A stretch of 32,000 nucleotides of DNA from Geobacter sulfurreducens PCA (GCF_000007985.2 NC_002939.5:3060001-3092000); one strand, 5' to 3'; numbered from the stretch's first letter, positions 11,441-27,171 are shown. Notes: generated by a model not told the origin, from the sequence alone. A program made the numbers and translations.

Positions 11441-12193
11441 ATGGCGGAGGGGTTCAAGGACTATTTTTCCGACACTTCCGATGCGTACCGGACCTATCGC
11501 CCCGAGTATCCGGACGCGCTCTTCGCGTGGCTGGCCGGGCTTCCGCCCCGCCGGGACGCCGCCCTCGATTGCGGCTGCGGCACCGGCCAGGCATCGGTGG
11601 TCCTTGCCAGCTACTTTCCCCGGGTCTACGCGGTGGACCCCAGCGCCGGCCAGATAGCCAGCGCCGTCCCCCACGAGGGGGTCGTGTACCGCGTGGCCCC
11701 GGCGGAACAGACAGGGCTGCCCGGTGCGAGCGTTGACCTGGTGGTGGCCGCCCAGGCTCTCCACTGGTTCGACTTCGACCGGTTCTACCCGGAGGTGCGC
11801 CGGGTCGGGCGACCCGGCTCCGTATTCGCCGCCTTCAGCTACGGCCTGCTTTCCATCGACGCGGACCTGGACCGGATCATCGGCCGGTTCTACCGCGAGG
11901 TGATCGGTCGCTACTGGCCCCCCGAACGGGCCCACGTGGACGACGGCTACCGCTCCATCCCCTTCCCGTTCCCCGAAATCGCTGCGCCTCCCTTTGCCAT
12001 GGAGGCACGCTGGGAACTGGAGCACCTGCTCGGCTACCTGGCAACCTGGTCTGCAGTCAGGGAATACCGGCAACGGCTCGGCACCGATCCGCTGCCGGAG
12101 CTTGCCCGGGAGGTGCGGGACGCCTGGGGCATCCCGGAGGAGGGACGAACCATTGTCTGGCCCCTGGCGCTGCGGGTGGGGCGCATCGCGTAG
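11441..12193 (+). CDS. class I SAM-dependent methyltransferase, 250 aa
   Basis: Has motif I LDCGCGTGQASVVLA. An RBS (GGGAGAGGA) is present, 16 nt after the ybjQ-like stop. Confidence 0.85.
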   Translation: MAEGFKDYFSDTSDAYRTYRPEYPDALFAWLAGLPPRRDAALDCGCGTGQASVVLASYFPRVYAVDPSAGQIASAVPHEGVVYRVAPAEQTGLPGASVDLVVAAQALHWFDFDRFYPEVRRVGRPGSVFAAFSYGLLSIDADLDRIIGRFYREVIGRYWPPERAHVDDGYRSIPFPFPEIAAPPFAMEARWELEHLLGYLATWSAVREYRQRLGTDPLPELAREVRDAWGIPEEGRTIVWPLALRVGRIA

Positions 12194-12200
12194 GGCGGTG

Positions 12201-12389
12201 TCAGCCCCGCCGGTGGGGTATGGATGCCAGGGCCCCCTTGAGGTCCGCCAGGGCCTGCTCGATCTCCGCCACGTTTGCCTCGATTTCTTCGAGGTCGCCG
12301 TTCACGTCCAGCTTGTCGGCAAACTCCTTGATGATCGCCATGTGCCCTGCCAGCAGCTCATTGACCCGCGATGTCTCGATGTGTGTCAT
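12201..12389 (-). CDS. small acidic coiled-coil hypothetical protein, 62 aa
   Basis: ATG 12389 is preceded by GGAGGAGGGG. Helical heptad-like sequence (EIEANVAEIEQALADLKGAL). The longer track ORF (to 12542) has no RBS. Confidence 0.5.
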   Translation of the reverse strand: MTHIETSRVNELLAGHMAIIKEFADKLDVNGDLEEIEANVAEIEQALADLKGALASIPHRRG

Positions 12390-12477
12390 AGTATCCCCTC
12401 CTCCCGTTCGGCCGCGCCGATCATCCTCCATTATCCCCGGTGGCCGACGAAAACCAGTATAGCCGCCCCGCCCCCGC

Positions 12478-12493
12478 TGGCAAGTGCCCTGCA
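12478..12493 (+). promoter_or_regulatory. sigma-54-type promoter candidate upstream of mscL (cTGGCAAG-N4-CTGCA)
   Basis: GG and GC doublets are at the canonical 10-nt separation. There are two mismatches to TGGCACG-N4-TTGCA. It lies 93 nt upstream of the mscL ATG. Confidence 0.4.
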
Positions 12494-12585
12494 AAAAGAG
12501 GCACGTTCTCCCTTCCAATCGGGCGGGGATGTGGTACAACAAAGGTTATTGCCGGCCCAACGACCAGCCCACTACACGGAGGTGC

Positions 12586-13020
12586 ATGATGTTCAAGGAG
12601 TTCAAGGAATTCGCCATGAAGGGAAATGTGGTCGATCTGGCCATCGGCGTTATCATCGGCGGCGCATTCGGCAAGATCGTCACGTCGGTGGTCAATGATA
12701 TCGTGATGCCTCCCATCGGCCTCCTGATGGGCAAAATGGACTTCTCGAACCTTTTCATCGACCTGTCGGGCAAGGGCTACGAGAGCCTCAAGGCCGCCAA
12801 GGACGCAGGCGCGCCGGTCATCAGCTACGGTGCCTTCATCAACACGGTCCTGGACTTCGTCATCGTGGCCTTCGTGATCTTCCTGGTGATCAAGCAGATC
12901 AACCGCCTGAAAAAGGAGCCGGTGCCCGCCCCGCCCGACACCAAGGAGTGCGCCTTCTGCTGCTCCGCCATCCCCATCAAGGCCACCCGCTGCCCCCACT
13001 GCACGTCGGAACAGAAATAG
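12586..13020 (+). CDS. mscL: large-conductance mechanosensitive channel MscL with a C-terminal Cys4 (zinc-ribbon-like) tail, 144 aa
   Basis: [32 protein letters not shown]... is the hallmark MscL TM1. RBS ACGGAGG is present. The C-terminus reads [20 protein letters not shown]. Confidence 0.95.
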
Positions 13021-13069
13021 CTTTATCCGGGCGGAGACACGATTACCGCTTCAACGGCTTGATGGCACG

Positions 13070-13101
13070 AAAAAGGGCGCTCCGCCGGGAGCGCCCTTTT
13101 T
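13070..13101. terminator. bidirectional intrinsic terminator between mscL and the convergent Fe-S oxidoreductase gene
   Basis: The hairpin is AAAAA-GGGCGCTCC-GCCG-GGAGCGCCC-TTTTT. It has a 9-bp GC stem and a 4-nt loop. An A-run and a T-run flank it, so it can terminate on both strands. Confidence 0.85.
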
Positions 13102-13128
13102 CATTGCCAACCACTGCCGAATGCTGTG

Positions 13129-15114
13129 CTACGAAACCGGCCGCATCCCCTCGGCCACCACCTCGGCAATGTCTCTTACCCGGGTCTGGCCGGCCTGCTT
13201 GTCCTTGAGCCCGTCCTCAAACATGGTCATGCAGTAGGGGCAGGCAACGCAGATGGTGTCGGGGTTCTTCGACAGGGCTTCGGAGACCCGGTTCAGGTTG
13301 ATCCGGGTGCCGGTCTGCTCCTCCATCCACATGCGACCGCCGCCGGCGCCGCAGCAGAACGACTCATCCCGGGCCCGGTCGAACTCGGTCGGTGCAGTGC
13401 CGGTGACCGTGGCCACCACCTCCCGCGGGGCTTCATAGACGTCGTTGTGCCGCCCGAGGTAGCAGGAGTCGTGGAGAATGATCTTCCCCAGATCGCTCAC
13501 CCGGCGGTCGAGCTTCAGCCGGCCCTCGGCCAGGAGCTGCCGGATCAGTTCCGCGTGGTGGATCACCTCGAGCTCGATGCCGTACTGGCGGTAGTCGTTC
13601 TTGAGGGTGGTGAAACAGTGGGGGCATTGGGCAATGACCTTGGTCACCCCCCGCCCCCGGAAGAGAGCCACATTCTCCCGGGCCATCCGGTCAAAGACGT
13701 ACTCGTTCCCCAGGCGCCTGAGGCTGTCGCCGCAGCACTTCTCGTCCTTGCCGAGGATTCCCCAGGATATGCCGGCCGCGTCGAGGATCGTCGCCAGGTT
13801 GACCGTCACCTGCTTGCTGCGGGAGTCGAAGGAGCCGGCGCACCCCACGTAGAGGAGATACTCGGTCTCGCCCTTGGCAAAGGGTTTTACATCCAGGAGG
13901 GACGCCCACTTGGTCCGCTCACCGGGGGCGATGCCCCAGGGGTTGGAGCGCTGCTCCATGTTCTCGAAAAGGTTCAGAAGCTCTTCCGGGAACCGGGCCT
14001 CCATCTCGACCAGGTGACGCCGCATTCCCACGATCTTGGGCAGGTGCTCGATAAAGACCGGGCAGGCCTCCATGCAGGCCCCGCAGGAGGTGCAGGCCCA
14101 GATGGACTCCTCGGACACGCTCCCCGGGCCGCCGTCGCCGATGAGCGGCAGGGTCGGCACCCCGCCCCGCTTAAGGAGCGGCCCGTTGGCCAGGAGGTTC
14201 ACCTTGATGTCATTCACCACCTGGCGCGGGTTCAGGGGCTTGCCGGTGATGTTGGCGGGGCAGACCTGCTGACAGCGACCGCACTTGGTACAGGCAAAGG
14301 GGTCGAAGAGATCCTTGACCGTGAACCGGTCCACCTGGCCGACACCGAAGGCGCGCCCCGCCTCGAAGACTTCGGGGAGCTGGGTGTTGGGCCGTGCCTC
14401 CGGATGGAGGAAGCAGTTGGCGATGGCCGTAAAGACGTGCAGATGCTTGGTGAAGGGGATCAGCACCGTTATGAAGGAGAGGAGCGCGGCGGCATGGAGC
14501 CACCAGTAGAAATTGAAGGTGGCCTCGATGTGCTTGGGGGTCAGATCGGCCAGGAATTCGCCGAAGAAGGAGGCGATCGGCATGAAGGCTGCGGCCCGCT
14601 CCTCGCCCCGGGCGATCTCGGCGGCGCTCACCCCGAAAAAGGCGATCATGTGGACGGCGATGAGCACGAGGATCAGGTACGACTCGAAACTGCGGGCCTC
14701 GGGATAAGGGGGGAAGAAGGTCCGCCGCACCAGGGCGATGGCAATGGCCACCAGCGTGAGGGCCGACATGACGTCCGACAGGAACCGGATCGGCACGTAG
14801 AGGGCATCGGGCAGCGCCGACAGGCGGGCCGCCGGGAAAACGCCGCTCACCACGAATTCCACGTTCACGAAGGCCAGAACCATGCAGGCCCAGAAGATGA
14901 CCAGGTGGTTCAGGCCGAAGAATTTATGGAGCACCCGCTTCTGGACGAAGGCGTACAGCAGCATCTCCCTGAGTCCCTCGCCGACCCCCCGGAACGTGTA
15001 GCCGGGGCGGCCGAGGGTAACAAGGCTCAGCTTGCGGTAGAGGCTCCAGGCAAAGAATGCCAGGGACGCCAGGAGCAGTGGAGCAAAAACGGCAGGATTC
15101 GGATGCATGTACAT
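13129..15114 (-). CDS. membrane-bound Fe-S oxidoreductase: N-terminal polytopic (NarI/DsrM-like) domain fused to a 2x[4Fe-4S] and double CCG (HdrD/GlpC/DsrK-like) domain, 661 aa
   Basis: About 5 hydrophobic helices in the first 230 aa. Ferredoxin motifs CTKCGRCQQVCP and CTSCGACMEACP. CCG-type cysteine motifs KCCGDS and FCCGAGGG plus VACPYC. The start could be ATG 15114 or 15108. Confidence 0.9.
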   Translation of the reverse strand: MYMHPNPAVFAPLLLASLAFFAWSLYRKLSLVTLGRPGYTFRGVGEGLREMLLYAFVQKRVLHKFFGLNHLVIFWACMVLAFVNVEFVVSGVFPAARLSALPDALYVPIRFLSDVMSALTLVAIAIALVRRTFFPPYPEARSFESYLILVLIAVHMIAFFGVSAAEIARGEERAAAFMPIASFFGEFLADLTPKHIEATFNFYWWLHAAALLSFITVLIPFTKHLHVFTAIANCFLHPEARPNTQLPEVFEAGRAFGVGQVDRFTVKDLFDPFACTKCGRCQQVCPANITGKPLNPRQVVNDIKVNLLANGPLLKRGGVPTLPLIGDGGPGSVSEESIWACTSCGACMEACPVFIEHLPKIVGMRRHLVEMEARFPEELLNLFENMEQRSNPWGIAPGERTKWASLLDVKPFAKGETEYLLYVGCAGSFDSRSKQVTVNLATILDAAGISWGILGKDEKCCGDSLRRLGNEYVFDRMARENVALFRGRGVTKVIAQCPHCFTTLKNDYRQYGIELEVIHHAELIRQLLAEGRLKLDRRVSDLGKIILHDSCYLGRHNDVYEAPREVVATVTGTAPTEFDRARDESFCCGAGGGRMWMEEQTGTRINLNRVSEALSKNPDTICVACPYCMTMFEDGLKDKQAGQTRVRDIAEVVAEGMRPVS

Positions 15115-15169
15115 GAACCTCGTAGCAATGAGCGAGATGATGAAGTGCGAACTGGTCGGGCTGTGACCT

Positions 15170-16513
15170 CTAGCCGCCGGTCACAGGACCCTGATTCTTC
15201 AGCTCCCGGATGCGCTGGGTAATGGCCGGGACGATCTGGAACAGGTCACCCACGATGCCGTAGGTGGCCACCTGAAAGATGGGGGCGTCCTTGTCGCGGT
15301 TAATGGCGATGACCACGTCGGAATCCTGCATCCCCACCAGGTGCTGGATTGCGCCCGAGATCCCGCAGGCGATGTAAATCTTGGGTCGCACCGTCTTGCC
15401 CGTCTGGCCCACCTGGCGCTCGTGGGGCATCCAGCCGGCGTCCACGGCGCTGCGCGACGCACCCACAACCCCGCCCAGTTCGTCGGCCAGTTCCTTGAGG
15501 ATGGAGAAGTTCTCCGGCGCCATCATGCCGCGGCCGCCGGAAACGATGAACTCGGCACCGGCCAGGTCCACGTGGTCGCCCTTCTTGTCCCGGATGATCT
15601 CCAGCACCTTGGTCAGGATGTCGGCCTCGTTGATGGCGCACTGTTCGCGGACGATCTCGCCCGTGGCACCCTCGATCCGCTCCGGCATCTTCATGACGTG
15701 GGGCCGCACCGTGGCCATCTGGGGGCGGAACCGGTCGCACATGATGGTGGCCATGATGTTCCCGCCGAAGGCGGGGCGGGTCTGCTTCAGGTTCCTCTTG
15801 TCGTCCACGTCCAGCCCGGTGCAGTCTGCGGTCAGGCCGGTCTTGACCCGCGTGGCCACCGCGCCCGCCAGGTCGCGGCCCATGCCGGTGGCGCCCATGA
15901 GGATGATCTCGGGCTTGTACTTCCCGATCAGGTAGCAGCAGGCTTCCAGGTAGGGTTCGGTCCGGTAGTGAAGGAAGACTTCTTGGTCCAGCAGATAGGC
16001 CTTGGTGGCGCCGTAGGCGAACGACTCGCGGCAGAGATGCTCCACGTCGCGGCCGATGACCACGGCGCACAGCTCCGTGCCGAGGCTGCGGGCGAGCTCG
16101 CCCCCCACCCCAAGCAGTTCCCAGGAAACCTTGGCCGGCTCACCCTCGGTCTGCTCAATGAAGACCCAAACCCCCCGATAAGCGGCGAGCATCCGGGCCA
16201 GGGCAGCTTCTTCCTCGTCCACCTCTTCGGCGGCCCCGCCGGCTCCGGCGGCCTCCTGCTGGCGAGCCAGCTCTTCGAGGATCTTCAGCTCCTCGGGGGT
16301 GAAGAACATCTCCAGGGCCTCGGCCGGGCAGACCTTGACGCACTTGACGCAGCCGATGCACTTCTCGCTGAGAATGATCGGCTCGCCGGCGTCGTTCATG
16401 TCGATACAGTTGACTGGGCAGGCGCTCTGGCACCGGGCGCCGCAGGCGATGCACTTTCCTTCGATCAGCCGTGCCCGGCCCCGGGGTTTCTTCGGTTTTA
16501 CCGGTTGAGTCAT
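15170..16513 (-). CDS. etfA: electron transfer flavoprotein alpha subunit with an N-terminal 2x[4Fe-4S] ferredoxin domain, 447 aa
   Basis: N-terminus has CIACGARCQSACP and CIGCVKCVKVCP. The C-terminal half is EtfA/FixB-like, with FAD-binding region SRSAVDAGWMPHERQVGQTGKTVRPKIYIACGISGAIQH. RBS GAGG is present. Confidence 0.9.
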   Translation of the reverse strand: MTQPVKPKKPRGRARLIEGKCIACGARCQSACPVNCIDMNDAGEPIILSEKCIGCVKCVKVCPAEALEMFFTPEELKILEELARQQEAAGAGGAAEEVDEEEAALARMLAAYRGVWVFIEQTEGEPAKVSWELLGVGGELARSLGTELCAVVIGRDVEHLCRESFAYGATKAYLLDQEVFLHYRTEPYLEACCYLIGKYKPEIILMGATGMGRDLAGAVATRVKTGLTADCTGLDVDDKRNLKQTRPAFGGNIMATIMCDRFRPQMATVRPHVMKMPERIEGATGEIVREQCAINEADILTKVLEIIRDKKGDHVDLAGAEFIVSGGRGMMAPENFSILKELADELGGVVGASRSAVDAGWMPHERQVGQTGKTVRPKIYIACGISGAIQHLVGMQDSDVVIAINRDKDAPIFQVATYGIVGDLFQIVPAITQRIRELKNQGPVTGG

Positions 16514-16556
16514 TGAATACCTCGTCTATGCGTTCACGCGTTCAGGCGTTGATTCG

Positions 16557-17375
16557 TCACACCGCCAGCAGATCCTTTGCCAGCAGTTGATTGATCAGCA
16601 GGTTGGCCGTGCCCACCGGATCTACCATGCCGTCGCCGATGATCTCTCCCTTGGCCCGCTCCGGCGAAAAGATCCGGCTCACCCAGGTGGGCGACCCCTT
16701 GAGGCCGACGCTGTTCACGTCAAGGCGCAGGACCTCATTGTTCCAGACTTTGACCGCGGCGTCAACGGAGGCAAGCCGCAGCGGAACGGTGGGATAGCGA
16801 GGGCGGTTCAGCTCGCGCACCACGGTAATCATGACCGGCAGCGGCGCCTCCACCACCTCGTAGCGTCCCTCCAGCTTGCGCCGCACCCTGATCGTGCGGG
16901 CCGCCGCGTCCAGGTGCTCGATCCGGTCCACCAGCGTGAGCTGGCTGAACCCGAGGCGAACGGCAATGCCCGGCCCCACCTGGGCCGTATCGCCGTCAAT
17001 GGTTTGCTTGCCGCAGAAGACGATGCCGATCTCGTCGCCGGCCTCATCGGCGATCCGCTTGATGGCGGCGGCCAGCACGTTACTGGTGGATAGGGTGTCG
17101 GCACCGCCGAAACAGCGGTCGGAGCAGAGGATCGCCTCATCGGCGCCCATGGCCAGCGCCTTCTTGAGGGCGGCTTCGGCATTGGGCGGCCCCATGGAAA
17201 GCGCCACGGCCCTGAAGCCGTAGCGGTCCTTGATCCGCAGCCCCTCTTCCAGGGCATGGGTGTCATAGGGGTTGACGATGAACGGGATACCCTCCCGCAC
17301 GAGGGTGTTGGTCACCGGATCGATCTGGACCTGGGTGGTATCCGGCACTTGTTTGATGCAGGAAATGGCGAGCAT
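16557..17375 (-). CDS. etfB: electron transfer flavoprotein beta subunit, bifurcating-type motif present, 272 aa
   Basis: MLAISCIKQVPDT... is the EtfB/FixA N-terminus. Contains GKQTIDGDTAQVGPGIA, the FixA/bifurcating-type sequence rather than the DxNQTG-type. RBS GGAGG is present. Confidence 0.9.
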   Translation of the reverse strand: MLAISCIKQVPDTTQVQIDPVTNTLVREGIPFIVNPYDTHALEEGLRIKDRYGFRAVALSMGPPNAEAALKKALAMGADEAILCSDRCFGGADTLSTSNVLAAAIKRIADEAGDEIGIVFCGKQTIDGDTAQVGPGIAVRLGFSQLTLVDRIEHLDAAARTIRVRRKLEGRYEVVEAPLPVMITVVRELNRPRYPTVPLRLASVDAAVKVWNNEVLRLDVNSVGLKGSPTWVSRIFSPERAKGEIIGDGMVDPVGTANLLINQLLAKDLLAV

Positions 17376-17446
17376 TCATATCCTCCGGCCCGTCAAGGGC
17401 TCAGCCGTGAAGGCAGGGGTTCTGCCCTTACTTTAAACAGACGGGC

Positions 17447-17476
17447 ACTATAACAGAAACAGAAAGTGCTAATCAA
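17447..17476 (-). promoter_or_regulatory. candidate sigma-70 promoter for etfB (TTGATT-N18-TATAGT on the minus strand)
   Basis: Read as the reverse complement of aatcaa (17471..17476) and actata (17447..17452). It lies in an AT-rich 197-nt gap about 70 nt upstream of the etfB ATG. Confidence 0.45.
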
Positions 17477-17572
17477 GCATAGTGTGCTTAAAATGTAGGC
17501 ATATATTTTTATCTACACTAAAACATGCCCATTATTTGGGCTGACGATGCGCCATGCCGGTACCGCCGCAAC

Positions 17573-18376
17573 CTACCCCATACTCCCCAGACTGGCCAGG
17601 GAGAATAGCGTCGAGGGATCATATGCCGGACTGCGCCCCACGCACATGAGCGAGGTCCTGCCGGCCACGGAGAAGCCGGCAGCGTTCAGCAGCGCCGCAG
17701 CTGACACGTTGCGTGCCGGCGTATCGAGCACAACCCTCCCTGCCGACCCGGCCACGGCGCGCGCCCCGGCGAGCAGGGCCGTGGCGCAGCCGTTGCCGCC
17801 GCACCAGGGGCCGATCTGAACGCCGTCACCGCAGGGCTGTACCACGAGAAACCCCCCGTCTCCGGCCAGCAGGGTGCCGCGCTCCGCCACGGCCGCCAGG
17901 AGCGCCTCGCGCCGGTCGTCCCACCCCTGCCGGTCCAGCGCCACCATCCCCTCCAGGGGCATCACGCCGGCGGACGCCTCTCCCGGAGCTCCGGCACCGA
18001 CCCAGCGGGTAACGGTGTCCAGCTCGCGGAACCCCATGCGCTCATAGAGAGGACGGCCCGCCGGTGACGCGGTCAGCCAGACCGTTTCCGTGCCGGCGGC
18101 AATCAGCTCCTCCATGGCCCGTTCCATGAGCCGGGCGCCGATCCCGCGCCCCCTGAATTCCCGTTCGACGAGGAGATTGCCGACCCACCCTCCAGTGCCA
18201 TGCCTGACCGCCGTGACAAAGCCCACGGGGCGACCGGCCAGGGTGGCGGCGAGACAGCCAGCGGGAAAGGCCCGCTGCAGGAATGTGAGCTCCCAGGGGT
18301 CGCTGATCCACCCTTCGGCACGGGCCAGGGCCAGGAACAGGTCCAGGGATTCGCCGTTGAACGGACCGATCTCCAT
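17573..18376 (-). CDS. GNAT-family N-acetyltransferase with a C-terminal extra domain, 267 aa
   Basis: Has the acetyl-CoA-binding motif VEREFRGRGIGARLMERA. About 130 aa of additional C-terminal domain follows. The ATG lies 4 nt after the nifB stop (TGAgatcATG), indicating translational coupling. Confidence 0.8.
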   Translation of the reverse strand: MEIGPFNGESLDLFLALARAEGWISDPWELTFLQRAFPAGCLAATLAGRPVGFVTAVRHGTGGWVGNLLVEREFRGRGIGARLMERAMEELIAAGTETVWLTASPAGRPLYERMGFRELDTVTRWVGAGAPGEASAGVMPLEGMVALDRQGWDDRREALLAAVAERGTLLAGDGGFLVVQPCGDGVQIGPWCGGNGCATALLAGARAVAGSAGRVVLDTPARNVSAAALLNAAGFSVAGRTSLMCVGRSPAYDPSTLFSLASLGSMG

Positions 18377-18380
18377 GATC

Positions 18381-19253
18381 TCAGGGGGCGGGCGGCAGCG
18401 CGCAGGCCGACTCGCCCACGGTCAACTCGGCGCCGATGAGCCCCACGGCATCCGCCCGGCACTGGCGGCAATGCTTGAACTGGCCGATGACCGCTTCGTT
18501 GGCGCGGCGGACCACGTCCAGTTCTTTCGGCGTCGGCGGCACGACATGGGCCAGTTCCGCCTGGGGAATGAGGGGCATGATGTTCATGACAAAGGCGCCG
18601 AACTCTTTCACCGTACGTCCTATGTCGCTGACCTGCCCGTCATTGATCCCGGGAATGAGGACGGTGTTGACCTTGACGGTCATGCCCAGGCCGACGGCGC
18701 GCCGGATTCCCTCCAGCTGGTTTTCGATGAGAATCCGCGCCCCCTCTTCCCCCCGGTACACCGTGCCGTGATAGAGGATGTGGCCGTAGATGCGGCTGCC
18801 GACGGCTGGGTCGAGGGCGTTGAGGGTCACCGTGAGGCTGTGGAGCCCCAGGTCGTGGAGCCGGTCGATGCTTTCGGGGAGCAGGAGGCCGTTGGTGCTC
18901 ATGCACTTGATGAGGTGAGGGAACTCTTCCCCCACGAGCCTGAAGGTCTCGAAGGTCTCCTCATTGGCCAGGGGATCGCCGGGGCCGGCGATGCCGATGA
19001 CCTTGATGATCGGTCCCACAACCGGACTCGCCATGACCTCGCGCACCTTGACGATGGCCTCGTCCGGGGTGAGCAGCCGGCTCGTCACCCCGGGGCGTGA
19101 CTCGTTGGCACAGTCATGCTTGCGGGAACAGTAGCCGCACTTGATGTTGCAGCGGGGCGCCACGGCAAGGTGCATCCGGCCGTTCTTGTGGTGATTGCCG
19201 CCAAAACAGGGGTGTCCCTGTATCTTCTTCAACTGGTCACAGGACGTTGCCAT
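18381..19253 (-). CDS. nifB: nitrogenase cofactor biosynthesis radical-SAM protein NifB, stand-alone SAM domain (290 aa, no NifX-like C-terminal domain)
   Basis: HPCFGGNHHKNGRMHLAVAPRCNIKCGYCSRKHDCANESRPGVTS is the NifB signature and includes the CxxxCxxC radical-SAM cluster. RBS GGAGG is present. Confidence 0.9.
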   Translation of the reverse strand: MATSCDQLKKIQGHPCFGGNHHKNGRMHLAVAPRCNIKCGYCSRKHDCANESRPGVTSRLLTPDEAIVKVREVMASPVVGPIIKVIGIAGPGDPLANEETFETFRLVGEEFPHLIKCMSTNGLLLPESIDRLHDLGLHSLTVTLNALDPAVGSRIYGHILYHGTVYRGEEGARILIENQLEGIRRAVGLGMTVKVNTVLIPGINDGQVSDIGRTVKEFGAFVMNIMPLIPQAELAHVVPPTPKELDVVRRANEAVIGQFKHCRQCRADAVGLIGAELTVGESACALPPAP

Positions 19254-19271
19254 AGTCGACCTCCGTGGATG

Positions 19272-19313
19272 ATGAACTGAAAAGGGCGCCGATCTTGGAT
19301 CCCCAGCGCCCTT
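19272..19313 (-). terminator. terminator-like hairpin in the nifB leader, immediately upstream of the nifB RBS
   Basis: The minus-strand RNA reads AAGGGCGC-(16-nt loop with an inner GATC/GATC pairing)-GCGCCCTT, followed by TTCAGTT. The stem is 8 bp. The U-tract is only moderate. Confidence 0.45.
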
Positions 19314-19328
19314 GCCGTGAAACGCAAC

Positions 19329-19357
19329 GAGCCCGGGGTCTCTCGACCGCCGGGCTC
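19329..19357 (-). other. very stable leader hairpin upstream of nifB (12 bp, one bulge, GAGA tetraloop)
   Basis: GAGCCCGG-c-GGTC-GAGA-GACC-CCGGGCTC read on the minus strand. Confidence 0.5.
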
Positions 19358-19693
19358 CCTTGCCTGCGTGAATGGGGCGCCGCCGGGGCGCTCCCTCGTA
19401 TGTGGTGTGCGATACGTCTTCGTATGCCGTATCATTCCCTTAACACTAAGCGTGCCACAATGAAGAAGCGTCCCCGCCCACATGGCAACACCCTTAAATC
19501 GCAGAACATTTACCCGGGCCAAACGTATACACGCACACTAGTGTGACTAATTGTTGGGCAGTGACTGACAGGCATTAGGCACATGTATGCCTCAATCGTC
19601 GCAGCGCGGGAGGGCTCCGCGTTGCAAAGAACCGGCGGTCGGGCGTTGAGGATCGCTGGGGCATGCCGGTCAGTTTTTTGCAATCGATGCCGC

Positions 19694-20623
19694 ATGACCT
19701 TTTCCTGCGAGCCGGCAGAACTTCGTTCCCGCGCCAAGGCGGCCTTCATCGGCCTGGCAGTGGGAGACGCCCTGGGGGCGCCGGTGGAATTCATGACCAC
19801 GGGCGAGATCAAGGCCAAGCACGGCGTCCTGCGTGAGATCGTCGGCGGCGGCTGGCTGCGCCTCAAACCGGGGCAGGTGACTGACGATACCGACATGTCA
19901 CTGTGCGTGGCCCGGGGAGTGGCGAAGGCAGGGGAGTGGAACCTGACGGCCATTGCCGAGGAATTCGCCGCATGGCTCCGCTCCAAGCCCGTGGACGTTG
20001 GAGACACTTGCCGCCGCGGCATCCGCAACTACATGCTCAAGGGGCTGCTCGAAACCCCGTTCAACCAGTGGGATGCCGGCAACGGCGCCGCCATGCGGAT
20101 GCTGCCGACAGCCCTGTTCACCATGGGGGACGACAACCTCCTGTGCCGCTGTGCCGTGGAGCAGGGACACCTGACCCACAACCACCCCCTTTCCGACGCA
20201 GCCTGCATCACACTGGGCAGGCTCGTCCACCTCTCCGTCCTCGGCTTTTCCAAGCCGCGTCTGCGCCGTGAAGCGGACCGGCTCACGGAAAGCCATCCCA
20301 CCTTTTCCTTTGAGCCCTACCGGGGGCTCGCCACGGGCTACGTGGTCGACACCATGCAGACCGTGCTCCATTTTTTCTTCCGCGGCCGCGACTTCGAAGA
20401 GTGCCTCGTCTCCACCGTCAACCAAGGGGGGGATGCCGACACCACCGGCGCCATCATCGGCATGGTCGCCGGCGCCTACTACGGCATGGAGGAAATTCCC
20501 CGGCGCTGGCTCAAAAAGATGGACCGGCAAGTGCTGGACGAGATCGACACCCTGTCGGATCTCCTTATTTCACTATCACCGGCGCTTCGGAGCGGAAACG
20601 GAATTTTGTTGCCTCCCGCTTGA
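19694..20623 (+). CDS. draG: ADP-ribosylglycohydrolase family protein, DraG-like (ADP-ribosyl-dinitrogen reductase hydrolase), 309 aa
   Basis: N-terminus RAKAAFIGLAVGDALGAPVEFMT...GGGWLRLKPGQVTDDTDM, and C-terminus GGDADTTGAIIGMVAGAYYG. A draT gene is nearby. No SD is visible before ATG 19694, and the upstream track start at 19583 gives an implausible N-terminus. Confidence 0.8.
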   Translation: MTFSCEPAELRSRAKAAFIGLAVGDALGAPVEFMTTGEIKAKHGVLREIVGGGWLRLKPGQVTDDTDMSLCVARGVAKAGEWNLTAIAEEFAAWLRSKPVDVGDTCRRGIRNYMLKGLLETPFNQWDAGNGAAMRMLPTALFTMGDDNLLCRCAVEQGHLTHNHPLSDAACITLGRLVHLSVLGFSKPRLRREADRLTESHPTFSFEPYRGLATGYVVDTMQTVLHFFFRGRDFEECLVSTVNQGGDADTTGAIIGMVAGAYYGMEEIPRRWLKKMDRQVLDEIDTLSDLLISLSPALRSGNGILLPPA

Positions 20624-20709: not shown

Positions 20710-22176
20710 ATGAGGCAACGCTCTGCCCTGTTCACGATTCTGGCCGTTGTCGCGGCGCTGCTGGCGGCCGCCGGAGCTGTTCAGGCCCGCTCACCGGTCT
20801 TCGACGTGGACAAGGAGTTCTACCCCTACTACCCTTCCCTCATCAAATGGAACAAGTCGACCGTGCCGTTCAACGCGCCCGAGGTCTGCGGTTCCTGTCA
20901 TGAGCAGCAGTTCAACGAATGGAACGGATCGGTCCACAGCCTCGCCTTCAGGGACCCGATCTACCAGGGCGAGCTGAACAAGGCCGTGAAGGCCGTGGGC
21001 CACAGCATCTCCCGCCAGTGCGAAGGCTGTCACTCCCCCGTCGGCGTGGTCACCGGCGAAATCAAGGGCCCCGGCTTCCAGGGTCTTTCCTCCATGGCCA
21101 TGGCGGGTGTCTCCTGCGACGTCTGCCACTCCATCAGCGGCGTCACCCACTGGCAGACCCCGTCCCATGAGCCCGAAAACGGTTCATTTATCCTGACCCC
21201 CGGCGTGGAAACGGCCAATGGGCAGGTGCTGGTCAAGCGCGGCCCCTTCAAGCCCTCGCCGGAGTGCGGCGGTGGGTTTCACCAGTGCGAGGAATCCGAC
21301 CTCCACCTGCGGGCCGACCTGTGTGCCTCCTGCCACCAGGTCTATCACTATGATGCCCACTTCCCCATCGAGGCAACCTACCTGGAGTGGAAGCACGGCC
21401 CCTACGCCCAGAAGTCGATCCTCTGCCAGGACTGTCACATGGTCGATCTCGACACCTTCAAGCGCTCAGCCGACCAGTTCGTGATCCCCGACCGCAAGGA
21501 GTACCGCCACTACTTCAACGGCGCCAACTTCCTGCTGACCTACCTGGCCGCGGGAGCCGCGAAAAAGGCCGGGGACGAGGAACTGGCCAGGAATCTCATG
21601 CGGCAGTACGAAATGGCGATCCAGCGACTGAAGATGGCCGCCGACCTTGAAGTGACCCCGGTCTATCGGAGCGGCAGGCTCGCCGAGCTAAAGGTGCGGG
21701 TGAAAAACATCCGTGCCGGGCACAACCTGCCCACATCACTCACCAACGTGCGGCAGATGTGGCTCGAGATTACGGCCAGAGATGAACAGGGAACGGTCCT
21801 GATGACCAGCGGCACCCTCAACCCCGACGGAAGCCTGCCGGCTGAAGCGCGCGCCTTCACCTCGGACGGCATGGGGAGCGATTTCCATTTCGCCATCGAC
21901 CCCTGGGTGGTGACGGCTTTCTCCAAGCATGAAACCATTCCGCCCAAGGGGTGGAAGGACGTCCACTACGGCATCCAGGTGCCCGAGGGGGTCGGCCGGA
22001 TCACCGTGGAGGCGAAGCTCCGCTTCCGCCAGGCGGACCAGAAGGTGGCCGAGGCCCTGCTCGGAGCGGTGCCCAAAGATATTGACCTGGAGCAGATCTA
22101 CGGCATCAAGAGCGTGCCCCCCCTGCCGGTGGTGGATATGGTGGTGAAACAGGAGACGGTAAAGACGGCGCCCTAG
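20710..22176 (+). CDS. periplasmic pentahaem c-type cytochrome, 488 aa
   Basis: Signal peptide MRQRSALFTILAVVAALLAAAGAVQA. Five CxxCH motifs (CGSCH, CEGCH, CDVCH, CASCH, CQDCH). Strong RBS AAGGAGG. The C-terminal roughly 190 aa contains no haem motif. Confidence 0.9.
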   Translation: MRQRSALFTILAVVAALLAAAGAVQARSPVFDVDKEFYPYYPSLIKWNKSTVPFNAPEVCGSCHEQQFNEWNGSVHSLAFRDPIYQGELNKAVKAVGHSISRQCEGCHSPVGVVTGEIKGPGFQGLSSMAMAGVSCDVCHSISGVTHWQTPSHEPENGSFILTPGVETANGQVLVKRGPFKPSPECGGGFHQCEESDLHLRADLCASCHQVYHYDAHFPIEATYLEWKHGPYAQKSILCQDCHMVDLDTFKRSADQFVIPDRKEYRHYFNGANFLLTYLAAGAAKKAGDEELARNLMRQYEMAIQRLKMAADLEVTPVYRSGRLAELKVRVKNIRAGHNLPTSLTNVRQMWLEITARDEQGTVLMTSGTLNPDGSLPAEARAFTSDGMGSDFHFAIDPWVVTAFSKHETIPPKGWKDVHYGIQVPEGVGRITVEAKLRFRQADQKVAEALLGAVPKDIDLEQIYGIKSVPPLPVVDMVVKQETVKTAP

Positions 22177-22271: not shown

Positions 22272-23069
22272 TCAGATGGTGCACATGATCTGCCGTACCC
22301 GGTACTCGCCGCCGATCACCAGGTATTCCCCCTCCCCCTTCATGATGCTGTTGGGCAGCAGGTCGTTGAAGAAGAAGATCTTCGACAGCGGCGCCCGGAT
22401 CTCCCAGACGGTGAACCCGAACTCCCATGCGCGCTCCTCTACGGATGTGAAGGAAACCAGGTTGTTGAAGCGGACGATCTTCTCCCGCTTGCCAAGCTCC
22501 TCCACCACGTCATAGTCATCGGCGTCGAAGGTGCCGCGGTAGAGGGTGATCCAGCGTTCGCCGGCCATGCGGCGCGCCTGCTCGTACTGGCAGAATTCGT
22601 AGAGGATGTCCAGCTGGGAGTTGATGGCATTGGTCCTCTTGCTCCCGGCGGTGCGGTCCATCACGTAGGTGTAGTAGGACTCGCTCTGGATGCCGCCGAT
22701 GCGGGCCTTGTGGAAGGTTGGGACGATGCCCATGCGGCTCTCTACCCACCCCTTGAGCACGGCCCCCTCGACTGAGTTGGAATCCATCATCCAGCCGCGC
22801 AGGTAGCGCAGGTAACTGTTCTTCAGGCTCTTGCGCGCCGTGTCCGTCTGCTGGGCCTGCCAGTGGTGGAGCTGGAACTTGACCGACATGTAGTCATTGA
22901 AGACCGTGCCGCGCTCTTCGGCCGAGGCAATACCGTCGAGTTTTTCGAAGAGGAACCGGTTGGCGGGCCGCACCCCCTGAACTTCCAGAGGGTGCGGGTT
23001 ATCGTTGAAGTGGCGGGAGGCGATGACCCACGGGGGGAGATTGCAGAGATTGAATCCCGAACTGAGCAT
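22272..23069 (-). CDS. draT: NAD+-dinitrogen-reductase ADP-ribosyltransferase DraT, 265 aa
   Basis: Matches blocks I recall from DraT proteins: NLPPWVIASRHFNDNPHPL, EGAVLKGWVESRMG, QLDILYEFCQ, FNNLVSFTS and KGEGEYLVIGG. These fit an R-S-E ADP-ribosyltransferase arrangement. Confidence 0.9.
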   Translation of the reverse strand: MLSSGFNLCNLPPWVIASRHFNDNPHPLEVQGVRPANRFLFEKLDGIASAEERGTVFNDYMSVKFQLHHWQAQQTDTARKSLKNSYLRYLRGWMMDSNSVEGAVLKGWVESRMGIVPTFHKARIGGIQSESYYTYVMDRTAGSKRTNAINSQLDILYEFCQYEQARRMAGERWITLYRGTFDADDYDVVEELGKREKIVRFNNLVSFTSVEERAWEFGFTVWEIRAPLSKIFFFNDLLPNSIMKGEGEYLVIGGEYRVRQIMCTI

Positions 23070-23127: not shown

Positions 23128-23457
23128 CTACAGAACCTTCGCAAGCTCCACGAGCGTTGCCTTGATGGGGCCGTCGGCCGTGAAGGCTTCCAGGCCGAGC
23201 CGCTCCAGCTCCATCAGTGGCCCCGGTCCGATCTGGGCGCAGACGAGCGCCCGGCAGCCGACGAGGGCTCCGGCTATGGACGAAAGGATATGAGCCCGCT
23301 GGGAGTGGTCGGACTCACCGGTGCAGTAACGCTCGATCTTGCGCTCATCCACCAGCCGGGCATCGCCGCCGTCGACTTCGTAGATGAGGAAACGCTCGGC
23401 ATGACCGAAATGTTGATTGATCTCCCTGCCGTCCCTGGACGTCACCGCGATGAGCAT
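23128..23457 (-). CDS. NifX/NafY/NifB-C-terminal-like dinitrogenase FeMo-cofactor-binding family protein, 109 aa
   Basis: MLIAVTSRDGREINQHFGHAERFLIYEV... is typical of the family. ATG 23457 is preceded by GGAGG. The track's longer start overlaps the ferredoxin gene. Confidence 0.8.
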   Translation of the reverse strand: MLIAVTSRDGREINQHFGHAERFLIYEVDGGDARLVDERKIERYCTGESDHSQRAHILSSIAGALVGCRALVCAQIGPGPLMELERLGLEAFTADGPIKATLVELAKVL

Positions 23458-23485
23458 GGGTACCTCCTGTTCCGGAGATCGGCGG

Positions 23486-23749
23486 TTACATTTCAACCGG
23501 CGCGAAGCTGAAGCACTTCTTCGAGCAGGTCCGGCCGCAGGCCTGACAGCCGATACAGTTGTCCGGGTTCGTCACTTTCATGTACATCTTGGCCGAATCG
23601 TCTTCGTCCACCTCTTCGAAGGTGAGCACGTCGTGGGCGCAGACCTTGTAGCAGCGGGCACAGCCGATGCAGGTTTCCTCGTCGATGGAGACGACGAACT
23701 GGGGGGTGTATTCCGTCTTGTTTCTTCTAAGCCCTGTGATGTAAGCCAT
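23486..23749 (-). CDS. nif-type ferredoxin III-like 2x[4Fe-4S] ferredoxin, 87 aa
   Basis: Two cluster motifs, CIGCARCYKVC and CIGCQACGRTC, are separated by an acidic insert (EEVDEDDSAKMY), as in nif-specific ferredoxin III. RBS GGAGGAAGG is present. Confidence 0.75.
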   Translation of the reverse strand: MAYITGLRRNKTEYTPQFVVSIDEETCIGCARCYKVCAHDVLTFEEVDEDDSAKMYMKVTNPDNCIGCQACGRTCSKKCFSFAPVEM

Positions 23750-23816
23750 TGTCCTTCCTCCGTATCCTGTGATGTATCGCGCAGGATCACGCCGTTGTGC
23801 GCTGCAGCGGGTTAGC

Positions 23817-24206
23817 CTATTCGTTGTCCTCGAACGACACTTCCGCACCCTTGTTCATGGCCTTGCGGAGCCACGGCGGCGGGTTACCCTTCAGGACGTC
23901 CCGGAGCCGGCCGACGGTTTCCTGCAGGCTCACCGGCGTATTGGTCTTCATGGGGTGGATCTTCAGGGCCACGAGCTTGGCCGCGGCCGGTCCGCCGATG
24001 GCCATGGTGTAGACGATGGCGCACTCCTTCAGGGCATTGGCCCGGGCCGCGATCTTGTCTTCCTCGTCATCGCCGTGGGCGCCGATGGCGATAGTTTCCA
24101 CGAAGGACGCCCCCTCGGGCGTGATGTCCCAGATCTGGAACTGCTTCGCCATGCCGAAGTGCTCGTCGATCATCTCGCCGGTCGTACTTGTGAATGCGAC
24201 TTTCAT
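23817..24206 (-). CDS. nifX: nitrogen fixation protein NifX, 129 aa
   Basis: MKVAFTSTTGEMIDEHFGMAKQFQIWDI... together with the C-terminal LKGNPPPWLRK motif typical of NifX. RBS AGGAAG is present. Confidence 0.9.
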   Translation of the reverse strand: MKVAFTSTTGEMIDEHFGMAKQFQIWDITPEGASFVETIAIGAHGDDEEDKIAARANALKECAIVYTMAIGGPAAAKLVALKIHPMKTNTPVSLQETVGRLRDVLKGNPPPWLRKAMNKGAEVSFEDNE

Positions 24207-27047: not shown

Positions 27048-27066
27048 GGTGACCTCGAATGTTTCC

Positions 27067-27105
27067 TGCAAAAGAAAACGCCGCCATTCCGGAGAATGGC
27101 GGCGT
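27067..27105 (-). terminator. strong intrinsic terminator (attenuator) in the nifEN leader
   Basis: The minus-strand RNA reads ACGCCGCCATTC-TCCG-GAATGGCGGCGT followed by TTTCTTTTGCA. The stem is 12 perfect bp. It ends about 20 nt before the nifEN ATG and lies downstream of the sigma-54 promoter at 27156..27171. Confidence 0.75.
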
Positions 27106-27155: not shown

Positions 27156-27171
27156 TGCACCCCACGTGCCA
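27156..27171 (-). promoter_or_regulatory. sigma-54 promoter for nifEN (TTGGCACG-TGGG-GTGCA)
   Basis: The reverse complement of 27156..27171 is TGGCACGTGGGGTGCA. It matches TGGCACG-N4-TTGCA at all positions but one, with correct GG/GC spacing. Confidence 0.7.

Follow-up and report, generated by a model that had tools for sequence, protein, structure and literature searches.

The three adjoining genes considered here, etfB, etfA and a gene for a membrane cytochrome b/Fe-S oxidoreductase, lie in a stretch of 32,000 nucleotides of Geobacter sulfurreducens PCA (NC_002939.5:3060001-3092000; hereafter, the window), and their products resemble parts of several described systems. The EtfABCX/FixABCX complexes (Thermotoga maritima, 7KOE; Azotobacter vinelandii) share with them an electron transfer flavoprotein (Etf) of the bifurcating type, as well as the reaction that we propose below, in which NADH reduces a low-potential ferredoxin or flavodoxin together with a membrane quinone. 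In T. maritima EtfABCX, the bifurcating FAD itself reduces ferredoxin, and the high-potential path from the electron-transferring FAD to the FAD that reduces quinone runs through the two EtfX clusters. In the CarE/LctC-type EtfA, on the other side of the reaction, an N-terminal ferredoxin domain relays electrons between an external ferredoxin and the bifurcating FAD; such a domain is found in CarCDE and Ldh-EtfAB of Acetobacterium woodii (6FAH, 7QH2), and its removal from Ldh-EtfAB abolishes confurcation. The EMO/EtfD enzymes (Syntrophus aciditrophicus SYN_02638, SaEMO; M. smegmatis MSMEG_0690, EtfD, 9OJN) are ETF:(methyl)menaquinone oxidoreductases that unite three parts in a single polypeptide: a NarI-like heme b domain of five helices, an HdrC-like domain carrying two cubanes and an HdrB-like one carrying non-cubane clusters. 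Their transmembrane domains conserve three His (two ligands of the proximal heme and one of the distal heme), and in the structure of the S. aciditrophicus EMO:ETF complex, whose EtfB binds AMP, the FAD domain of EtfA swings onto the non-cubane clusters. Both characterised EMOs have one degenerate distal site: EtfD reads TCTGD, with T for the second Cys of the first CCG, and holds a linear [3Fe-4S] cluster, and SaEMO holds a [4Fe-5S] cluster. Finally, methanogens have in HdrDE a membrane-bound heterodisulfide reductase, whose cytochrome b membrane part is accompanied by an HdrCB-like fusion in which both CCG motifs are complete.

The locus itself consists of three open reading frames (ORFs) on the minus strand, within positions 13129-17375 of the window:

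16557-17375, minus strand: etfB (GSU2797), 272 amino acids (aa), small Etf subunit, predicted bifurcating type; Pfam ETF, 1.3e-38
15170-16513, minus strand: etfA (GSU2796), 447 aa, large Etf subunit with N-terminal ferredoxin domain; Pfam ETF, 4.6e-43, and ETF_alpha, 1.4e-38
13129-15114, minus strand: GSU2795, 661 aa, EMO/EtfD-like membrane cytochrome b/Fe-S oxidoreductase, by homology to EtfD

The gaps between them are short (43 bp between etfB and etfA, 55 bp between etfA and the EMO gene), and no minus-strand terminator was found inside the etfB-etfA-EMO operon. The EtfB and EtfA of the window are exact matches of the G. sulfurreducens proteins AAR36191 and AAR36190, and the third protein is an exact match of ADI85544. 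The first two are proteins of strain PCA and the last is a protein of strain KN400. These identities place the trio at GSU2797-2795, where GSU2795 carries the annotation of an ETF-associated cytochrome b and Fe-S oxidoreductase. The locus is thus already known: it belongs to a model organism, it is annotated, and the ideas of a bifurcating complex and of a supply to nitrogenase are both in print, the former since Chan et al. (2017) gave a bifurcation/confurcation reading of GSU2795-2797, and the latter since work of 2022-2023 that is cited here at second hand. What the present analysis contributes is the domain content, motifs, homologies, synteny and promoter-like elements of the trio.

On this basis, the reading that we favour, with a probability of about 0.62, is that the trio encodes a reversible complex connecting NADH, ferredoxin and menaquinone, which would be a constitutive and essential hub with its own promoter, not nif-specific, and possibly feeding nitrogenase too.

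The type of the Etf is suggested first of all by two features of the flavoprotein genes:

16971-17012, minus strand: GKQTIDGDTAQVGP, EtfB residues 122-135, FAD/NADH-site signature replacing the AMP-type sequence
16304-16471, minus strand: EtfA ferredoxin domain of the 2x[4Fe-4S] type, residues about 15-70; Fer4 matches of ~1e-7

The EtfB motif aligns with GKQAVDGDTGQVGP and GRQAIDGDTAQVG of solved bifurcating Etfs, and the pattern G[KR]Q[TS]IDGDTAQVGP is present in all 68 trio EtfB matches that cover it. Bit scores agree with the motif. Indeed, EtfB scores 215 bits (8.6e-63) against T. maritima EtfABCX (7koe_A), 214 against CarD, 195 against Clostridioides difficile (5ol2_B), 193 against Acidaminococcus fermentans and 174 against LctB, compared with 35-78 bits against the solved non-bifurcating EtfBs. 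The closest solved relative of EtfA is CarE (6fah_A; 414 bits, 6.4e-123, the ferredoxin domain being included in the match); other bifurcating EtfAs give 272-334 bits and non-bifurcating ones at most 178 bits. The ferredoxin domain, a Fer4-type dicluster, reads CIACGARCQSACP and CIGCVKCVKVCP (CX2CX3CX3CP and CX2CX2CX3CP), and its eight motif Cys are kept in 72/72 homologous EtfA loci. A first-pass annotation, made from the DNA alone, had proposed a bifurcating-type Etf on account of the EtfB signature and of an N-terminal 2x[4Fe-4S] domain in EtfA; signature and domain are both present, and by every sequence test available (motif, bit scores, ferredoxin domain) the Etf is of the bifurcating type. 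Orthology to FixA and FixB, in turn, failed when tested with the E. coli-type NCBIfam models, both of which remain far under their cut-offs (FixA, NF002888, 71 bits versus 219 for EtfB; FixB, NF002889, 120 bits versus 549 for EtfA).

The comparison with EtfABCX/FixABCX also bears on the meaning of the ferredoxin domain, which is an extra of the Geobacter EtfA. The same first-pass annotation had considered it the equivalent of a fused FixX. This part of the proposal did not stand, as the EtfX clusters belong to the high-potential path and the CarE-type domain to the low-potential one; no bridging protein of the FixX/EtfX kind was found, the only ferredoxin-like module of the operon being the CarE-like N-terminus of EtfA. 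Given the difference between the CarE-type relay and the EtfX path, the EtfA domain would be a low-potential adaptor, and the roles of FixX and FixC would both fall to the EMO-like protein. Accordingly, whereas the quinone module of EtfABCX/FixABCX consists of the EtfC flavoprotein and the EtfX ferredoxin, the Geobacter trio has an EMO/EtfD-type cytochrome b/Fe-S protein, and no ETF-QO-like flavoprotein (FixC/EtfC) was found among the scanned ORFs of the 32-kb window. The likeness to CarCDE and Ldh-EtfAB has a similar limit: the ferredoxin domain of EtfA is the same, but on the high-potential side those two enzymes use a soluble dehydrogenase (caffeyl-CoA reductase and lactate dehydrogenase, respectively), whereas the Geobacter trio would use a membrane quinone reductase.

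The third protein shows the following parts:

14395-15114, minus strand: NarI-like membrane domain with five hydrophobic segments (hydropathy analysis) and His70, His207 and His226
14050-14307, minus strand: two CxxCxxCxxxCP cubane motifs, residues 275-286 and 341-352 (motif search), which align to clusters D3/D4 of EtfD
13219-13857, minus strand: HdrB-like double-CCG non-cubane-cluster domain with both motifs complete (Pfam CCG)

Its match to the cryo-EM structure of M. smegmatis EtfD (9ojn_A) reaches 5.5e-104 over residues 52-644, compared with only about 1e-5 to HdrB, and by this homology it is assigned to the known EMO/EtfD family of ETF:menaquinone oxidoreductases. The domain scan returned two Pfam CCG stretches (115.7 bits) and Fer4 dicluster matches, and found no flavin-binding domain. 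The description of the third gene as a membrane Fe-S protein other than FixC is in agreement with the five hydrophobic segments, the two cubane motifs and the two CCG motifs; the further claim that it would make a structurally new variant is at odds with the family assignment. Translation probably starts at Met3 (15108), which is invariant in 14 homologues. In the same homologues, His70, His207 and His226 are all invariant. In the alignment with EtfD, His70 and His226 fall on His78 and His241, which bind heme b; His207 is left unpaired with His223 of EtfD in the HMMER alignment and is matched by spacing alone (19 residues between His207 and His226, 18 in the solved EMOs). The three His are therefore taken to correspond to those conserved in EMO transmembrane domains, His207 being, by spacing, the putative distal-heme His. 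The CCG ligands (C425..C460C461..C497xxC500 and C551..C587C588..C625xxC628) and the Cys of the two cubane motifs are invariant in the 14 homologues too, and the two CCG motifs read KCCGD and FCCGA. The completeness of both leads to the prediction of an Hdr-like distal cluster, perhaps a full non-cubane [4Fe-4S] cluster, and not the [3Fe-4S] or [4Fe-5S] cluster of EtfD and SaEMO. Modelling with AlphaFold2 from an alignment of 14 sequences gave a poor result (mean pLDDT 63.6, pTM 0.45), and the identification rests on sequence homology.

The architecture is thus the single-polypeptide NarI-like/HdrC-like/HdrB-like one of EMO/EtfD, with heme His and cluster Cys conserved and with a gene that likewise adjoins etfBA. 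However, the partner of EMO/EtfD is an AMP-type Etf and that of the Geobacter protein is of the FAD/bifurcating type; moreover, the latter is only 35-37% identical to the canonical EMOs found in Geobacterales, and the trio has no linkage to beta-oxidation genes. The protein resembles HdrDE in its cytochrome b membrane part and in an HdrCB-like fusion whose CCG motifs are both complete, but it is a single polypeptide, always found beside etfBA, in menaquinone-using bacteria, and no heterodisulfide substrate is known for it.

Evidence on the importance of the trio comes from the literature. In the transposon-sequencing (Tn-seq) study of Chan et al. (2017), no insertion was recovered in GSU2796 or GSU2797, and GSU2795 was hit at two sites (~1% of its sites); the table of essential genes includes all three, and the text calls the cluster essential under fumarate-growth conditions, which points to a central redox-balancing role. 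The NH4Cl-containing recipe of that paper is for its Fe(III)-oxide medium, and the essentiality call was made in fumarate medium.

An expression of its own is suggested by the elements upstream of etfB:

17447-17476, minus strand: sigma-70-type promoter of the etf operon, TTGATT-18-TGnTATAGT (scan)
17485-17501, no strand assigned: palindrome TGCCTA-N5-TAGGCA-like, directly upstream of the -35 element, with one mismatch in the window
17376-17446, minus strand: structured 5' leader of etfB, minimum free energy -26.9 kcal/mol, z = -1.95
17527-17541, minus strand: weak hairpin after the GNAT stop codon, a 5-bp stem followed by a T-rich run (scan)

The promoter and the hairpin had both been noticed in the first-pass annotation, and the scan returned them at exactly the same coordinates. 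The same -35/-10 layout is found upstream of etfB in six loci of the survey described below (L001, L002, L006, L008, L045 and L018), the last of which is not adjacent to nif genes; an expression independent of nif had also been named as a caveat in the first annotation. The region after GNAT folds no better than shuffled sequences (z = 0.25), and the weakness of its hairpin makes read-through from nifB-GNAT into etfB possible. No sigma-54 pattern occurs in the 197-bp spacer between GNAT and etfB; across the window the pattern is not enriched (113 matches versus 129 expected), good sites being found upstream of nifEN (27156-27171) and of nifB (19442-19457). Rfam gave no meaningful match in 12000-20000 and none for the etfB leader. 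The palindrome, which has two matches in the window versus 0.39 expected, is conserved upstream of etfB in the same six loci, with or without adjacent nif genes, and is perfect in L001 and L002; it is unlike the HgtR dyad of gltA and does not match a sigma-54 element, and both identities were rejected.

The survey covers 85 loci. In 16 of them the sequence starts at the EMO gene or shortly before it; the other 69 retain DNA upstream of that gene, six of them being truncated at their start, inside etfA (three loci) or etfB (three loci). The order etfB-etfA-EMO is kept in all the 69 loci with upstream DNA, and the trio was found in Geobacterales, Dehalococcoidia, Methanoperedens and Deferribacterales. 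Nif linkage is seen in 10 of the 51 informative Geobacterales-type loci, in three arrangements (nifB-GNAT upstream; draG/nifB-GNAT downstream; nifEN..draT upstream), and seven further Geobacterales-type loci adjoin gltBD or gdhA. None of the 14 informative loci of the Dehalococcoidia/archaeal clade has nif neighbours, and the trio often stands there beside NiFe hydrogenase and MetVF. This occurrence in Dehalococcoidia and archaea suggests a mobile, general-purpose redox module. As for the single loci, the trio lies beside NiFe hydrogenase subunits and MetV/MetF-like genes in seven metagenome-assembled genomes of Dehalococcoidales (L052, L054, L055, L056, L069, L070 and L071), and it is also present in Methanoperedens-type contigs, assigned to archaea (L057, L060 and L072). 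Genes gltB-gltD lie upstream of the trio in L015, L019, L021, L023 and L077, and gdhA lies upstream on the opposite strand in L031, L040, L043 and L080; about a third of the informative loci touch some nitrogen-metabolism gene. The "gltD" cluster of L022, L034 and L066 was considered as a glutamate synthase (GOGAT) and discarded, being NfnB/GltD-like and beside a radical-SAM/SPASM gene, and it was not counted as nitrogen metabolism. Likewise, the idea that nif-linked copies form one clade apart from "catabolic" paralogues was rejected, the neighbour-joining tree scattering the nif-linked loci over several Geobacterales subclades.

From these data we infer the formation of a complex, its substrates and the direction of its reaction, as follows. 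The three products would most likely form together one membrane-bound complex, in which hydride exchange with NAD(H) would take place at the second, bifurcating FAD of EtfB. The low-potential electron would travel to or from soluble ferredoxin (Fd) by way of the 2x[4Fe-4S] domain at the N-terminus of EtfA. The high-potential electron would be delivered by the mobile FAD domain of EtfA, in the geometry of SaEMO:ETF, to the non-cubane clusters of the EMO/EtfD-like protein, and would then pass through the two cubanes and the heme(s) b to menaquinone (MK). The net, reversible reaction would be 2 NADH + 2 Fd(ox) + MK <-> 2 NAD+ + 2 Fd(red) + MKH2, and EtfABCX/FixABCX perform the same chemistry, with EtfCX where the Geobacter trio has an HdrDE-like EMO module. 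With potentials of about -450 mV for ferredoxin, -320 mV for NAD and -74 mV for menaquinone, the bifurcating direction is exergonic. By analogy with SaEMO, the conserved distal-heme His may couple the reaction to the proton-motive force. Such a hub would balance the NADH, ferredoxin and menaquinone pools, and during diazotrophic growth it may supply nitrogenase with reduced ferredoxin, perhaps with extra transcription through read-through from nifB-GNAT.

Several points weigh against this proposal. To our knowledge, there is no biochemistry for this complex and no bifurcating Etf-EMO complex has been purified. In addition, the top NCBIfam matches of the Etf subunits are those of the acryloyl-CoA reductase of Clostridium propionicum, far below cut-offs; the Etf of that enzyme is closely related to bifurcating Etfs and yet does not bifurcate, so that the Etf signature is necessary but not sufficient and is no proof of bifurcation. 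A bifurcating partner for EMO/EtfD is also experimentally unprecedented, since both characterised enzymes of the family pair with AMP-type, non-bifurcating Etfs. Lastly, the Tn-seq authors (Chan et al., 2017) offered both physiological directions.

The direction is the point at which the best-surviving alternative, unlikely in our opinion, departs from the bifurcating hub. According to it, the same complex would run as a confurcating enzyme, in which ferredoxin reduced by 2-oxoglutarate:ferredoxin oxidoreductase and menaquinol would together yield NADH for complex I. This is one of the two options of the Tn-seq authors, it agrees with the fact that G. sulfurreducens makes 2-oxoglutarate:ferredoxin oxidoreductase, and Ldh-EtfAB, whose EtfA likewise has a ferredoxin domain, runs in the confurcating direction. 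At standard potentials, however, MKH2 + 2 Fd(red) -> 2 NADH is endergonic and bifurcation is favoured, and the conserved distal-heme His would, if the SaEMO analogy applies, make the reverse direction cost proton-motive force.

Slightly less likely still is a plain, non-bifurcating ETF:menaquinone oxidoreductase, in which, as happens in Syntrophus and mycobacteria, the Etf would only collect electrons from a dehydrogenase (of acyl-CoA or another substrate) and menaquinone would receive them by way of the EMO-like protein. The two characterised members of the EMO/EtfD family do exactly this, and look-alike Etfs that do not bifurcate exist. Nevertheless, no acyl-CoA dehydrogenase was found among the scanned ORFs of the window, and the strict conservation of the FAD-type EtfB motif and of the ferredoxin domain would be needless for a plain ETF. 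In the fumarate medium of the Tn-seq study acetate was reportedly the sole organic substrate, so that beta-oxidation would be unneeded there. Still, the study (Chan et al., 2017) calls the cluster essential during growth on fumarate. A further argument comes from those Geobacterales that hold a separate canonical EMO and an AMP-type-like Etf beside the trio, which argues for distinct functions. This second set is found in nine loci (Geomonas, Geobacteraceae), with identities of 35-37% for EMO and, in most loci, of ~30-35% for the Etf subunits. The canonical Etf of these nine loci is without the DGDTAQVGP motif. In seven of the nine, the second EtfB reads GMQSQDRGSAQVG; the second EtfA, alignable in eight of nine, aligns from residue 120 onward and is thus without the ferredoxin domain. 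Two Etf types thus stand side by side in these relatives, the one in the window being of the bifurcating type. The canonical set lies directly upstream of the bifurcating-type trio (L013, L017, L020, L030, L036, L044, L046, L059 and L075), and its completeness varies, EMO, EtfB and EtfA not all being retained everywhere.

A third alternative gives the trio a place in the nif regulon, as a Fix-like supply whose purpose would be reduced ferredoxin for nitrogenase, a role to which the first-pass annotation had inclined. The neighbourhood that prompts it is the following:

24288-27071, minus strand: nifEN fusion, a neighbour from the nif cluster
23817-24206, minus strand: NifX-like gene
within 23486-23848, minus strand: 2[4Fe-4S] ferredoxin (GSU2804-type) of the nifEN operon
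23128-23496, minus strand: second NifX-like gene
22272-23069, minus strand: draT
20710-22176, plus strand: multiheme cytochrome, 488 aa, with a Cytochrome_C554 domain
19583-20623, plus strand: draG (TIGR02662, 511 bits)
17573-19253, minus strand: nifB(short)-GNAT operon, context outside the complex, separately regulated; in the literature, an operon of two genes preceded by an antitermination leader
18381-19253, minus strand: short nifB (TIGR01290, 332 bits versus a cut-off of 343.65)
17573-18376, minus strand: two-domain GNAT (GNAT domains), directly upstream of etfB
12484-13020, plus strand: mscL

The trio indeed lies directly downstream of nifB-GNAT on the same strand, as had been stated, and adjacency to nif genes recurs in five genera (Geobacter, Geotalea, Geomobilimonas, Oryzomonas and Pelotalea); the ferredoxin gene of the nearby nifEN operon and the up-regulation of EtfAB/"fixAB" under N2-fixing conditions, reported in the second-hand work of 2022-2023, are further points in favour of this alternative. 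A dedication to nitrogen fixation is nonetheless improbable, more so than the two alternatives above. The trio is essential in the fumarate-growth Tn-seq, and in the corresponding part of the essential list of Chan et al. (2017) nif genes are absent; the operon has its own conserved sigma-70-type promoter, with no sigma-54 site in the spacer; the nifB operon boundary, taken from the literature, leaves only two genes upstream; nif neighbours are lacking in 41 of the 51 informative Geobacterales-type loci and in all 14 of the Dehalococcoidia/archaeal clade; and the FixA and FixB models stay far below their cut-offs. It follows that the operon is probably a general redox module beside nif genes, not nitrogenase-specific, for which the feeding of nitrogenase is a plausible extra use.

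The weakest alternative, an HdrDE-like thiol/disulfide reductase in which the third protein would reduce a disulfide instead of merely conducting electrons, can draw on CX(n)CCGX(m)CXXC motifs that are both intact and invariant, where the characterised EMOs each have a degenerate distal site, but it is very improbable in view of the strict linkage to etfBA in every locus, of the full-length EtfD match that far exceeds the HdrB one and of the lack of a candidate thiol-carrier gene nearby.

Some observations on the surroundings may be added. Upstream of nifB, a GC-rich hairpin with a T-run (19275-19313, minus strand) lies just before the ribosome-binding site, and a TGGCAC-N5-GTGTT site (19442-19457, minus strand) lies ~190 nt upstream of the start codon; together they fit the published control of the two-gene operon by sigma-54 and GnfR antitermination. 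The corresponding "Gsul_2799 homologue operon" of Ueki and Lovley (2010) consists of a radical-SAM gene and an acetyltransferase gene, with an antitermination leader. The 488-aa multiheme c-type cytochrome between draT and draG, which is found in the same place in L001, L002 and L006, is an odd partner for DraT/DraG. Moreover, a Geobacter anodireducens-like locus (L004, 1-22000) harbors a paralogous trio whose EMO-like protein has 68% identity; its neighbours are an aldehyde:ferredoxin oxidoreductase, Fe-alcohol dehydrogenases, a radical-SAM/SPASM gene and NfnAB-like genes, which suggest that this second copy is linked to alcohol/aldehyde metabolism.

A more ambitious form of the hub proposal is possible but doubtful, namely that the trio represents a distinct class of bifurcating enzyme, in which a CarE-type, ferredoxin-domain EtfAB acts on an HdrDE-like EMO, the reduction of ferredoxin by NADH is coupled to that of menaquinone and to the proton-motive force, and the complex is the main low-potential electron source of Geobacterales, nitrogenase included. 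There is a moderate residual chance that characterisation could define such a class, and the missing piece is biochemistry, not the recognition of the locus. If the predicted chemistry is true, the module would set the exchange of electrons between NADH, ferredoxin and quinone in Geobacter and in many other anaerobes, with consequences for growth yield and electrode respiration and, in soils and bioelectrochemical systems, for the cost of fixing nitrogen, and the newly solved EMO/EtfD family would be extended from plain ETF oxidation to electron bifurcation.

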